Assembly (NCBI RefSeq): GCF_048403405.1
Contig: NZ_CP183129.1
Length of the DNA: 64,000 nucleotides
Strand: one strand, 5' to 3'
Source: Escherichia coli
GTDB lineage: Bacteria > Pseudomonadota > Gammaproteobacteria > Enterobacterales > Enterobacteriaceae
The number at the start of each line of letters is the position of its first letter. The first letter of the stretch is position 1. The position numbers and the translations under genes are program-made. This document shows, in pieces, positions 48,373-53,895 of this stretch. A model generated the notes under the pieces. It saw only the letters and a program-made list of their open reading frames with translations. It was not told where the DNA came from and made no database searches.

Positions 48373-48957
48373 GTGACGATTAAATTGATTGTCGGCCTGG
48401 CGAACCCCGGCGCTGAATACGCCGCAACGCGACATAATGCTGGTGCCTGGTTCGTTGACTTACTGGCAGAGCGATTGCGCGCTCCGCTGCGCGAAGAGGC
48501 TAAATTCTTTGGTTATACTTCGCGAGTCACCCTTGGAGGCGAAGATGTCCGCCTGTTAGTCCCGACTACATTTATGAATCTCAGCGGCAAAGCCGTTGCG
48601 GCGATGGCCAGTTTTTTCCGCATTAATCCGGACGAAATTCTGGTGGCCCACGACGAACTGGATCTGCCTCCTGGCGTCGCCAAATTTAAGTTGGGCGGTG
48701 GCCATGGTGGTCACAATGGACTGAAAGACATCATCAGTAAATTGGGTAATAACCCTAACTTTCACCGTTTACGCATCGGAATCGGTCATCCGGGCGATAA
48801 AAATAAAGTTGTTGGTTTTGTATTAGGCAAACCGCCTGTTAGTGAACAGAAGTTAATTGATGAAGCCATCGACGAAGCGGCGCGTTGTACTGAAATGTGG
48901 TTTACAGATGGCTTGACCAAAGCAACGAACCGATTGCACGCCTTTAAAGCGCAATAA
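48373..48957 (+). CDS. pth: peptidyl-tRNA hydrolase
   Basis: 194 aa from a GTG start, (M)[26 protein letters not shown]. Confidence 0.95.
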
Positions 48958-49073
48958 GTCGTTGTCTGCGGCATTTTTGCCGAGTGCCGTGTATAATAGG
49001 CAAAGTTATTTCCATTTCTGCAATCTGTTAGCAATAACAGGTTGATTATTAAGATATTAAGGTGATTTAAATC

Positions 49074-50165
49074 ATGGGATTCAAATGCGGTATCGTCGGT
49101 TTGCCCAACGTCGGGAAATCTACCCTGTTCAACGCGCTGACCAAAGCCGGTATTGAAGCGGCCAACTTTCCATTCTGCACCATCGAGCCGAACACAGGCG
49201 TCGTACCAATGCCTGACCCTCGCCTGGATCAACTGGCTGAAATCGTAAAACCGCAGCGTACGCTTCCCACGACCATGGAATTTGTCGATATCGCCGGTCT
49301 GGTAAAAGGCGCATCGAAAGGCGAAGGTCTGGGTAACCAGTTCCTGACCAACATCCGTGAAACCGAAGCGATCGGTCACGTTGTTCGCTGCTTTGAAAAT
49401 GACAACATCATTCACGTTTCCGGCAAAGTTAACCCGGCTGATGATATTGAAGTTATCAACACCGAACTGGCGCTGGCGGACCTCGACACCTGCGAACGTG
49501 CGATTCATCGCGTACAGAAGAAAGCCAAAGGTGGCGATAAAGACGCGAAAGCTGAGCTGGCGGTCCTGGAAAAATGCCTGCCCCAGCTGGAAAACGCAGG
49601 TATGCTGCGCGCGCTGGATTTAAGCGCTGAAGAGAAAGCGGCTATTCGTTACCTGAGCTTCCTGACGCTGAAACCAACAATGTACATCGCCAACGTCAAC
49701 GAAGACGGTTTTGAAAACAACCCGTATCTTGACCAGGTGCGTGAAATCGCGGCGAAAGAAGGTTCTGTTGTGGTTCCGGTTTGTGCTGCTGTTGAAGCAG
49801 ACATTGCCGAACTGGACGACGAAGAACGTGACGAGTTTATGCAGGAGCTTGGGCTGGAAGAGCCGGGCCTGAACCGTGTGATCCGTGCCGGTTATAAGCT
49901 GCTGAACCTGCAAACTTACTTCACCGCTGGGGTGAAAGAAGTACGTGCATGGACCATTCCGGTTGGTGCAACCGCGCCGCAGGCCGCTGGCAAAATCCAT
50001 ACTGATTTTGAAAAAGGCTTTATCCGTGCACAAACTATTTCGTTCGAAGATTTCATCACTTACAAAGGTGAACAAGGCGCGAAAGAAGCAGGCAAAATGC
50101 GTGCAGAAGGCAAAGATTACATCGTTAAAGATGGCGATGTAATGAACTTCCTGTTCAATGTCTAA
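49074..50165 (+). CDS. ychF: ribosome-binding ATPase YchF (Obg family)
   Basis: 363 aa, G1 motif [10 protein letters not shown]-terminal TGS domain. Confidence 0.96.
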
Positions 50166-50220
50166 TTAATTTGTTGTCTCATGAGGTTTCGCTAAATCTC
50201 ATGAAGAGCGCAAAAGTATA

Positions 50221-50254
50221 TAAAATCCACGCAATTGCGTGGATTTTTCATTTT
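50221..50254 (+). terminator. ychF intrinsic terminator
   Basis: aaaatccacgcaattgcgtggatttttcatttt, perfect 9 bp stem plus T-run. Confidence 0.75.
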
Positions 50255-51009
50255 ACCGAGTCCTAACCATTCTTATAACATCCTACACTTTTGTGCTTAT
50301 TGCCTATAGTGAACCACCAGAATAATTAAAGACATAAGTGTTCAGATGAGGGATATCTCATTAGCAATGAGATAACGTAAGTTTGTGTTCCACTGCACAT
50401 CAGACACCTTTTACAGCTGATCAATATTGATCACGCTCCAATATGCTGGCGAGAAAAGGACTTGCCTGAAGGGCAATATCCAGCAGATAAAGCCCCCGAA
50501 TAACGTGATTACGTGCGATCCTGGCAAGATGAAAATGATAACCAGTAGCACGATAATAACGATAAGCCAGAAAATCCATTGATCAAAAATGAATATCGAT
50601 GTTTTTTGCTTTTTCTTATTAGTAATGCAAAAATGGCTCATATTGTTTTTGTTATGCAGATACATCAAGCGAAAATCCCATAACTAATTAGGATTATTAC
50701 CAAAAATATTCACCAAATTATTTAACCGCTGTTTGTTGTAATGTTTTTGTCATATTCATAGTAACGAATTGGAATAAGTAACGACAACTTAGGGAATAAC
50801 TCGATCTAAACTCACCTTTGTAAGGAGGATGTTAAATATATATTAATTCCTGTGTTCCTGATTTTGCCCGGTAATAGAGAATTATTCTCAGAGCAGCTCA
50901 TCATGATTGCACCATACAAATATCATGATGATAAGAGGATATTATTCATTGACTTAAACAAAATGACAAAATCCATAGACCCATAGCCTGGGTACTATAT
51001 AGGAGTGGT

Positions 51010-53895
51010 ATGGGCATCAAACAACACAATGGGAATACCAAAGCCGATCGTCTCGCTGAATTAAAAATCCGTTCGCCCTCCATTCAACTGATAAAATATG
51101 GCGCTATTGGTTTGAATGCAATTATCTTTTCCCCCCTGCTGATAGCTGCTGATTTAGGAAGTCAAAATGGCACCACTATTACTATTAGTGATGGTGACAG
51201 AATTACAGGAGATACCGCCGATCCATCAGGAAACCTCTATGGTGTAATGACCCCAGCAGGAAACACGCCTGGCAATATCAACCTGGGTAATGATGTCACC
51301 GTCAATGTCAACGACGCCTCTGGATATGCAAAGGGAATCGTTATTCAGGGCAAGAACAGCTCCCTGACAGCTAACCGACTTACAGTAGATGTTGTTAGTC
51401 AAACCTCTGCCATCGGCATTAATTTAATTGGTGACTATACCCATGCTGACTTAGGCACAGGCAGCACCATTAAGAGTAACGATGACGGCATCATTATTGG
51501 ACATAGCTCAACACTAACAGCCACTCAATTCACCATTGAAAACTCGAACGGTATAGGCCTAACCATCAATGACTATGGCACCAGTGTCGATCTTGGAAGC
51601 GGAAGTAAAATCAAGACCGATGGAAGTACAGGTGTTTATATCGGTGGTCTCAACGGCAATAACGCCAATGGTGCTGCGCGTTTTACGGCGACAGACCTGA
51701 CAATCGATGTTCAGGGCTACAGCGCCATGGGAATAAACGTACAGAAAAACTCTGTTGTCGATCTCGGAACAAACAGTACCATTAAAACCAATGGCGATAA
51801 TGCGCACGGCCTCTGGAGCTTTGGCCAGGTGAGCGCGAATGCACTCACTGTTGATGTAACTGGATCCGCGGCCAATGGCGTCGAAGTTCGTGGTGGTACA
51901 ACCACTATCGGTGCTGATAGCCATATTTCTTCCGCGCAGGGCGGTGGCCTCGTAACCAGTGGTTCAGACGCGACAATCAATTTTTCTGGCACGGCAGCGC
52001 AACGAAACAGCATCTTTTCCAGCGGTTCTTATGGTGCCTCAGCCCAGACGGCAACGGCTGTTGTCAACATGCAAAATACCGATATTACGGTTGATCGTAA
52101 TGGCAGTCTGGCGCTGGGTTTGTGGGCGCTCAGCGGCGGTAGAATAACCGGAGACAGTTTGGCTATCACCGGCGCGGCAGGAGCCAGGGGGATTTATGCC
52201 ATGACCAACAGCCAGATCGATCTCACGAGCGATCTGGTCATTGATATGAGTACACCCGACCAGATGGCCATTGCAACGCAACATGACGATGGTTATGCCG
52301 CCAGCCGCATCAACGCCTCGGGTCGTATGCTTATCAACGGTAGCGTTCTTTCCAAAGGTGGGCTAATCAATCTGGATATGCACCCTGGGTCGGTTTGGAC
52401 AGGTTCTTCCCTCAGCGATAATGTCAATGGCGGGAAACTGGACGTTGCAATGAATAACAGCGTCTGGAACGTAACAAGTAATTCTAATCTCGACACGCTG
52501 GCGCTGAGCCATTCAACTGTCGATTTTGCCAGCCACACGTCAACTGCCGGCACATTTACCACATTAAACGTAGAGAACCTGAGCGGTAACAGTACCTTTA
52601 TTATGCGTGCTGATGTTGTTGGCGAGGGTAATGGCGTTAATAATAAAGGGGATTTATTGAATATCAGCGGGAGTAGTGCTGGTAATCACGTATTGGCTAT
52701 CCGTAACCAGGGCAGCGAGGCCACAACGGGAAATGAAGTTCTGACAGTGGTAAAAACCACTGACGGCGCGGCCTCGTTCAGCGCGTCTTCTCAGGTTGAG
52801 TTGGGAGGATATCTGTATGATGTGCGTAAAAATGGCACTAACTGGGAGCTCTACGCTTCCGGGACAATTCCGGAGCCGACTCCAAATCCTGAGCCCACAC
52901 CAGCTCCCGCTCAGCCTCCCATAGTCAACCCCGATCCTACGCCTGAACCCGATCCTACGCCTAACCCCGCTCCCACGCCTAAACCCACCACGACTGCAGA
53001 TGCTGGCGGCAATTATCTCAATGTCGGTTACTTATTGAACTATGTTGAAAACCGTACGCTGATGCAACGGATGGGTGACCTGCGAAATCAGAGTAAAGAC
53101 GGTAATATCTGGTTGCGCAGTTATGGGGGAAGCCTGGACTCCTTTGCCAGTGGCAAACTGAGCGGCTTTGACATGGGTTACAGCGGTATCCAGTTTGGTG
53201 GGGATAAACGTCTCTCTGATGAAATGCCGTTGTATGTCGGTCTGTATATTGGCTCAACACATGCATCGCCGGACTATAGCGGAGGCGACGGTACCGCACG
53301 TTCAGACTACATGGGAATGTACGCCAGTTACATGGCACACAACGGTTTTTACAGCGATCTCGTAGTAAAAGCATCGCGCCAGAAAAATAGTTTCCACGTA
53401 CTGGACAGTCAGAACAACGGCGTTAACGCCAACGGCACTGCGAATGGAATGAGTATCTCCCTGGAAGCCGGGCAGAGGCTCAACCTGTCCCCTACTGGTT
53501 ATGGGTTCTATATAGAGCCGCAAACCCAGCTCACATACAGCCACCAGAATGAGATGGCTATGAAGGCGAGTAATGGCCTCAATATACATCTGAATCACTA
53601 CGAATCGCTGCTGGGGCGTGCCAGCATGATACTGGGGTATGACATCACCGCAGGCAACAGCCAGCTGAATGTCTATGTGAAGACTGGCGCTATCCGCGAG
53701 TTTTCAGGGGATACCGAATATCTGTTGAACAACTCCCGGGAGAAGTACAGTTTCAAAGGTAATGGCTGGAATAATGGCGTGGGAGTCAGTGCACAGTATA
53801 ACAAACAGCACACATTCTATCTCGAAGCGGATTACACGCAGGGTAACCTCTTTGATCAGAAGCAAGTCAACGGAGGATATCGCTTCAGCTTTTAA
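51010..53895 (+). CDS. ycgV: AIDA-I-type autotransporter adhesin (ycgV-like)
   Basis: 961 aa; N-terminal signal region, repetitive Gly/Thr/Asn-rich passenger, Pro-Thr-rich linker, C-terminal beta-barrel ending ...NGGYRFSF. Confidence 0.9.
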   Translation: MGIKQHNGNTKADRLAELKIRSPSIQLIKYGAIGLNAIIFSPLLIAADLGSQNGTTITISDGDRITGDTADPSGNLYGVMTPAGNTPGNINLGNDVTVNVNDASGYAKGIVIQGKNSSLTANRLTVDVVSQTSAIGINLIGDYTHADLGTGSTIKSNDDGIIIGHSSTLTATQFTIENSNGIGLTINDYGTSVDLGSGSKIKTDGSTGVYIGGLNGNNANGAARFTATDLTIDVQGYSAMGINVQKNSVVDLGTNSTIKTNGDNAHGLWSFGQVSANALTVDVTGSAANGVEVRGGTTTIGADSHISSAQGGGLVTSGSDATINFSGTAAQRNSIFSSGSYGASAQTATAVVNMQNTDITVDRNGSLALGLWALSGGRITGDSLAITGAAGARGIYAMTNSQIDLTSDLVIDMSTPDQMAIATQHDDGYAASRINASGRMLINGSVLSKGGLINLDMHPGSVWTGSSLSDNVNGGKLDVAMNNSVWNVTSNSNLDTLALSHSTVDFASHTSTAGTFTTLNVENLSGNSTFIMRADVVGEGNGVNNKGDLLNISGSSAGNHVLAIRNQGSEATTGNEVLTVVKTTDGAASFSASSQVELGGYLYDVRKNGTNWELYASGTIPEPTPNPEPTPAPAQPPIVNPDPTPEPDPTPNPAPTPKPTTTADAGGNYLNVGYLLNYVENRTLMQRMGDLRNQSKDGNIWLRSYGGSLDSFASGKLSGFDMGYSGIQFGGDKRLSDEMPLYVGLYIGSTHASPDYSGGDGTARSDYMGMYASYMAHNGFYSDLVVKASRQKNSFHVLDSQNNGVNANGTANGMSISLEAGQRLNLSPTGYGFYIEPQTQLTYSHQNEMAMKASNGLNIHLNHYESLLGRASMILGYDITAGNSQLNVYVKTGAIREFSGDTEYLLNNSREKYSFKGNGWNNGVGVSAQYNKQHTFYLEADYTQGNLFDQKQVNGGYRFSF

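Follow-up and report, generated by a model that had tools for sequence, protein, structure and literature searches.

An open reading frame (ORF) of 85 codons occupies the minus strand between ychF and the autotransporter gene ycgV in the stretch of Escherichia coli DNA analyzed here (64,000 nucleotides, hereafter the window). The genes around it are those of the E. coli chromosome, in the order dauA, ychH, pth, ychF, an 844-bp spacer, ycgV and dhaR. The initial annotation had described this ORF and its AT-rich surroundings, and both are present as described: the ORF spans 50411..50668, and the G+C content is 35.2% in the spacer and 37.2% in the ORF, compared to 50.1% in the window. In the ORF listing of the window the 85 codons are counted from a TTG at 50668. 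The second codon is an ATG (50665), which gives an 84 aa product, and codon numbers below are counted from this ATG. The features of the region are as follows:

49074-50165, plus strand: ychF
50222..50247, both strands: bidirectional ychF terminator, a hairpin whose 11-bp palindrome is perfect and is followed by a T-run on either strand
50411..50668, minus strand: the ORF, translated as MYLHNKNNMSHFCITNKKKQKTSIFIFDQWIFWLIVIIVLLVIIFILPGSHVITLFGGFICWILPFRQVLFSPAYWSVINIDQL
50411-50413, minus strand: stop codon (TAA) of the ORF
50446..50520: 75-bp segment, codons 49-73, including a second, weaker hydrophobic stretch
50462..50464, minus strand: codon 68, CAA (Gln) here and TAA in most non-deleted strains; the change is at 50464
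50462..50476, minus strand: small hairpin TTGCC-CTTCA-GGCAA inside the ORF, followed by a T-rich run
50525..50665, minus strand: first 47 codons, a Lys-rich N-terminus and the hydrophobic helix
50525..50578, minus strand: 18 uninterrupted hydrophobic residues, WIFWLIVIIVLLVIIFIL
50529-50557, plus strand: opposite-strand promoter-like match inside the ORF, 9/12; matches of this kind are no more frequent in the region than chance predicts
about 50552..50852, no strand: equivalent of K-12 promoter island 1255333_301, converted via the ycgV and ychF positions in NC_000913.3
50676-50679, minus strand: GGGA, the only Shine-Dalgarno-like element, ~10 nt upstream of the ATG
50941..50969, minus strand: best sigma-70-like match, TTGTCA-17-AATAAT, 10/12, a consensus match only
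51010-53895, plus strand: ycgV autotransporter gene, divergent from the ORF

The length of the ORF is ordinary. In dinucleotide shuffles of the spacer, an ORF of 85 codons or more appears in 12%, one of 67 or more in 38% and one of 59 or more in 57%. Long frames were also observed antisense to annotated genes of the window. A 240-codon ORF on the minus strand (48786-49508) runs opposite the last part of pth and the beginning of ychF, and several ORFs of ~90-150 codons lie antisense to dauA, pth, ychF and ycgV; all of these are typical non-genic frames. ORF length alone is, therefore, of little weight in this window.

The spacer was found in ~4,100 of 5,426 complete E. coli genomes and is missing from about a quarter of them; it is gained and lost together with ycgV. 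In genomes without the spacer, ychF is followed almost directly by dhaR, or by an integrase and an IS element. Since the spacer co-occurs with ycgV and both are replaced in other genomes, the two form an accessory unit.

In K-12 the ycgV/ychF spacer is one of 78 'promoter islands' (1255333_301 in U00096.2) described by Shavkunov, Ozoline and co-workers (PMC3661553). Promoter islands are AT-rich, contain dense promoter-like sites and bind RNA polymerase and H-NS while yielding little full-length RNA. They adjoin horizontally acquired genes, and the island in question is linked to a gene predicted to be foreign; H-NS binding to it was reported in every study compared (PMC3661553). The remark of the initial annotation that the region looks like promoter DNA agrees with this published picture of the K-12 spacer, a promoter island to which H-NS binds. 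The equivalent of the island in the window spans ORF codons 1-38 and 190 nt upstream. The AT-rich spacer and the linkage to an accessory gene are the same in both cases. The published island, however, is described as a DNA platform for RNA polymerase and H-NS, with no word on the ORF, and the K-12 spacer is without the 75 bp that the allele of this strain carries. In a genomic SELEX paper on minor sigma factors, too, one of the listed sites falls in this spacer (PMC5493296). Our sigma-70 scan of the region found 2 sites against 4.0 expected by shuffling; the sites are not above the shuffle expectation, and the reported promoter density was not reproduced by this method, which is cruder than the published one.

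The best sigma-70-like match lies upstream of the ORF and on its strand. The hairpin of the ychF terminator should, as predicted, end transcripts arriving from either direction, including one from the minus-strand ORF. A minus-strand transcript that carries the ORF, with the candidate promoter at 50941..50969 and the terminator downstream, is conceivable. The initial annotation had seen no convincing ribosome-binding site. The signal is indeed weak but not absent: the predicted energy of GGGA against the anti-Shine-Dalgarno sequence is -4.0 kcal/mol, equal to that of pth; among random 25-mers this value ranks near the 25th percentile, little better than their median. In the predicted fold, GGGA pairs within a small hairpin (AAUCCUA/UGGGAUU). 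On the plus strand, a near-perfect Shine-Dalgarno sequence, TAAGGAGG, at 50821-50828 abuts the ATG of a 5-codon mini-ORF, MLNIY, with spacing too short for a normal start. The mini-ORF stops at 50844-50846, ~180 nt upstream of ycgV, and K-12 has GGGGGA at the position of the Shine-Dalgarno sequence.

Hydrophobic helix of the ORF

One clear transmembrane stretch had been noted in the predicted protein, and it is present: the maximum Kyte-Doolittle 19-residue mean of the ORF is 3.26. The Lys-rich segment ahead of the helix contains 5 Lys/Arg in residues 1-29 (5-6 before the helix), which is the correct positive-inside pattern. The second hydrophobic stretch, C-terminal to the helix, is weaker.

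The run of 18 hydrophobic residues was compared with expectations from composition and with the rest of the window. None of 2,000 spacer shuffles reached such a run (mean 7.8), and it was reached in 5e-5 of shuffles that preserve the local T-rich composition. No frame of the 64-kb window, of the six read, has a longer one, those of true membrane proteins included. Runs of at least 13 residues were found elsewhere only inside long ORFs, and other non-genic frames of the 64 kb have a maximum of 12. The predicted transmembrane helix exceeds chance, and random AT-rich DNA does not explain it. Furthermore, T occupies codon position 2 in 16 of the 18 helix codons, compared to 5 and 6 codons at positions 1 and 3. 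This codon-like periodicity of T, together with the statistically exceptional helix, suggests that the stretch is not random AT-rich DNA but what is left of a membrane-protein gene, or else a coding sequence in the making.

Alleles, substitutions and homologues

Alleles of the ORF were counted with allele-specific 42-mers among the 5,426 complete E. coli genomes, and the main length forms were explained by alignment of 16 distinct spacer haplotypes. The initial annotation had named conservation of the reading frame as a test of the ORF, and the frame is not conserved: the open full-length CAA allele occurs in about 273 genomes, i.e., only ~6.6% of region-bearing E. coli genomes keep the 85-codon frame. 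The allele with the TAA stop at codon 68, which encodes a 67 aa product, was found in about 1,843 of the 5,426 genomes, and the junction of a 75-bp in-frame deletion, with a product of 59 aa, in about 2,008. The version of the ORF in this window is a minority allele.

The segment removed by the deletion, 50446..50520, is missing from K-12-like strains and lies between short GCCAG repeats. We considered the in-frame nature of the deletion as a sign of selection and rejected it, because slippage at GCCAG repeats preserves the frame in one of three cases. Predicted proteins in public data have lengths of 84, 81, 77, 67 and 59 aa, the 77- and 81-aa forms being frameshifted, and further predicted forms end in unrelated sequence. 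One genome is without positions 50390-50644, nearly the whole ORF, yet keeps ycgV. In a second genome 1 nt is missing after codon 6, perhaps through an error of sequencing. Each of the 16 distinct haplotypes of the first alignment has the ATG and codons 1-47 intact, as do the three major alleles; codons 1-47 are the only part of the ORF that the three major alleles have in common.

The nonsense change at codon 68 is also a change in the small hairpin at 50462..50476. In the common hairpin allele (TTACC...GGTAA) both arms are altered together and pairing is kept, one of the two changes being CAA to TAA. Predicted energies are -10.1 kcal/mol for the G..C combination, -10.4 for A..T, -8.1 for G..T and -7.1 for A..C. 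The covariation concerns one pair, so the linkage may be due to chance. In K-12 the hairpin is lost through the 75-bp deletion.

Substitutions in codons 1-47 were analyzed separately. Variant codons were nonsynonymous in 11 cases and synonymous in 1, and the changes were distributed over codon positions 1, 2 and 3 as 7:5:1, with no third-position bias. The raw ratio is ~2.4 (25.7 synonymous and 115.3 nonsynonymous sites), a value that rests on a single synonymous change. Within the helix only second-position changes are able to break hydrophobicity; they make up ~3-4 of 8-9 changes, which is not below the neutral one third. Four residues, Leu, Pro, His and Ser, were seen at codon 34, which lies in the helix. 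The SNP density of codons 1-47 is 0.071, and that of the flanking spacer is 0.073 and 0.102. By comparison, ychF in these strains has, over its final 300 nt, 0 nonsynonymous and 17 synonymous changes, all at third positions, and the first 300 nt of ycgV contain 9 nonsynonymous and 6 synonymous changes. The most divergent '84-aa' variant was left out of the ychF/ycgV comparison, since its ychF is split into two called genes, which we took as a sign of sequencing errors. It is still included in the SNP and codon counts, the 11:1 count among them, to which it adds mainly C-terminal singletons. The haplotype sample consists of 2-3 deep groups, with ~3,800 genomes sharing one N-terminal form, and the selection tests, therefore, have little to modest power. 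The 11:1 count is not significantly different from neutrality. By our binomial estimate (p of roughly 3e-4 at a dN/dS of ~0.15), what it rules out is only purifying selection as strong as that typical of E. coli genes.

Searches for homologues revealed the ORF in E. coli and Shigella only. In a word-indexed search of 5.8 billion proteins (clusters), all credible matches were E. coli/Shigella variants, and a full HMMER search against 1.84 billion representatives produced only such variants plus low-complexity noise. A peptide-pattern scan of 100,044 species genomes (one per species) detected just two contigs, JAEWQO010000123.1 (a MAG of 'Actinomycetes bacterium') and NZ_JARVKW010000136.1 ('Streptomyces sp. 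DH24'). Both are 95-98% identical to the pth-ychF-ycgV locus and are evidently E. coli contamination. Plasmid records searched for a donor of the spacer gave matches to E. coli only, mostly chromosome-sized or large. No family match was found in Pfam, NCBIfam, PADLOC or PHROG, where matches were sub-threshold only and typical of a hydrophobic helix. In Rfam, searched with a permissive threshold, no family reached the cut-off; apart from noise, there were two sub-threshold Leu_leader matches on opposite strands, and these are the ychF terminator hairpin.

The ORF is not annotated by PGAP in any of the sampled RefSeq genomes, which were spread over the identity range; the sole annotation under the spacer in this sample is an IS1 transposase in one strain. 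Nothing is annotated in the spacer in the curated K-12 MG1655 record (NC_000913.3), where the equivalent ORF would be at 1256297-1476 on the plus strand, with 59 aa. Matches in the protein database indicate that some pipelines call the ORF a 'membrane protein'. Its sequence is not in the PIRT-Seq supplements. It was also not found in the supplementary tables of the PMC11188072 catalogue, which is weak evidence.

Interpretation of the reading frame

The initial annotation had left the choice between a small membrane protein and a chance ORF. Our data disfavor a protein maintained by selection, since the frame is a minority one and almost all substitutions are nonsynonymous; 'pure chance' is also not quite right, given the exceptional helix. 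A genuine E. coli-specific small inner-membrane protein would have a core of ~47 residues, a Lys-rich cytoplasmic N-terminus and one helix, followed by a dispensable tail, and would be transcribed divergently from ycgV, probably only upon relief of H-NS silencing. The exceptional helix with its codon periodicity, the charges that obey the positive-inside rule, and a core and ATG intact in the three major alleles agree with such a protein, and a dispensable tail would tolerate the observed truncations. The promoter-like site and the terminator are on the correct strand, the Shine-Dalgarno energy equals that of pth, some pipelines apply the 'membrane protein' label, and Enterobacteriaceae are reported to have many hydrophobic microproteins in their intergenic regions (PMC11188072). 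The small membrane proteins that have been validated in E. coli (single helix, ~50 aa or fewer, identified by tagging and ribosome profiling) likewise combine a charged N-terminus with a strongly hydrophobic helix. They are, however, part of the K-12 reference annotation, from which our ORF is absent, while the ORF is polymorphic in frame and is not conserved beyond E. coli/Shigella. The core has accumulated 11 nonsynonymous changes against 1 synonymous, at the SNP density of its flanks, and second-position changes in the helix are not avoided, as Pro, His and Ser at codon 34 demonstrate. Truncating alleles are at high frequency, a deletion of the whole ORF and an early frameshift were seen, and PGAP is also without an annotation for it; its absence from the PMC11188072 supplementary tables counts weakly in the same direction. 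On balance, we regard a genuine small inner-membrane protein as doubtful. A variant of this idea, a very young membrane microprotein restricted to E. coli, which would have arisen from, or been captured in, the T-rich DNA of the H-NS-silenced island, would be expressed when silencing is lifted and would segregate as 84-, 67- and 59-aa alleles with one helix each, appears unlikely.

Type I toxins (Hok, Ldr, Ibs, ShoB, ZorO, DinQ and others) are small hydrophobic intergenic peptides of narrow lineages that are often unannotated. By this likeness the ORF could be the toxin of an unrecognized type I toxin-antitoxin-like module, with translation blocked by mRNA structure or by an antisense RNA: it is small, very hydrophobic, unannotated, lineage-specific and intergenic, its Shine-Dalgarno-like element is predicted to be sequestered in a hairpin, and an opposite-strand promoter-like site lies within it at 50529-50557. 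That site, however, is a 9/12 match in a region where such matches do not exceed chance. At 59-84 aa the product is longer than most type I toxins and has no sequence relationship to them or to defense models; the ORF is single-copy, with no tandem repeats, no Rfam family reached threshold, no antisense RNA was identified, and the peptide is not conserved, purifying selection on it not being seen. We consider the toxin reading very improbable. A pure chance ORF, with no coding history, in which non-coding DNA that is AT-rich and T-skewed would have yielded the open frame and the hydrophobic stretch alike, agrees with an ORF length within the shuffle expectation and with evolution that looks neutral. 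It agrees, too, with the abundance of hydrophobic small ORFs in Enterobacteriaceae spacers, which is attributed to AT-richness and most of which turn over quickly (PMC11188072). It does not account for the 18-residue run, reached in none of the spacer shuffles and hardly ever in those of local composition, for a maximum of 12 in other non-genic frames of the 64 kb, or for T at the second position of nearly every helix codon, and is accordingly given little probability.

Given that the ORF is found only in E. coli/Shigella, that most strains have a truncated form and that its evolution resembles that of non-coding DNA, it is most likely no working gene. We think it likely that it is a lineage-restricted orphan frame, not maintained as a protein-coding gene, that drifts in the silenced, acquired regulatory DNA of ycgV as a relic or a proto-gene. 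The AT-rich spacer would have arrived with the accessory ycgV gene and, judging from the literature, most plausibly carries its silenced regulatory region. Within the spacer the ORF would drift, its tail being lost to a nonsense mutation, to slippage that removed codons in frame, to frameshifts and to deletions of larger size, while codons 1-47 would gather mostly amino-acid-changing substitutions at the density of the surrounding non-coding DNA. The helix stretch may once have coded for a membrane segment, as the relic of a donor gene, or may be a T-rich 'proto-gene'. The latter recalls the 'TM-first' model of de novo genes from T-rich DNA (Vakirlis et al. 2020, cited in PMC11188072). Under either the relic or the proto-gene view there is nothing in favor of a current protein function.

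A close published parallel to the ORF is in 'The Cryptic Bacterial Microproteome' (PMC11188072), which also deals with short, hydrophobic, lineage-specific ORFs of AT-rich spacers with transmembrane potential and high turnover among strains. The core set of that work was selected for signatures of purifying selection, which our ORF is without, and the 84 aa allele exceeds the 70-codon limit of the catalogue. Unless translation is demonstrated, the ORF should be regarded as a non-gene; it is ordinary in kind. If it is indeed an unselected, drifting frame, then a clean 85-codon 'membrane protein' ORF in AT-rich DNA can be a frame under no selection, and its status is settled quickly by population data from thousands of genomes, and not by length and hydrophobicity. 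As a very young microprotein ('proto-gene') it would offer a natural polymorphism series for bacterial gene birth or death. If it were a protein, it would be a membrane microprotein specific to one lineage, occurring naturally in three common lengths beside a silenced adhesin gene, of interest for research on small proteins and de novo genes, and no established view would change.

Variation in ycgV and at the spacer junctions

The ycgV gene is itself often degraded. It carries the annotation of an incomplete pseudogene in strain FORC_044, and other assemblies have it split or shortened, the called products being 284, 378 or 602 residues long, compared to 955-961. Such degradation would be expected of an adhesin gene that is accessory, silenced and only weakly selected.

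Variable content begins at the 3′ end of ychF (window ~50150-50250), which acts as a junction. In strain S21EC, ychF is directly followed by a tyrosine integrase and an element of the IS3 family. Strain HH45, without ycgV, has ychF, a 126-nt pseudogene fragment and dhaR, and in one metagenome contig homology stops at window position 50153 and is followed by a gene with TerB domains. In EECO1006, whose spacer is otherwise 100% identical, an IS1 element with a 9-bp target duplication at 50809-50817 has inserted 144 nt upstream of the ORF ATG, on the ycgV side of the ORF, and separates both genes from parts of the shared spacer.
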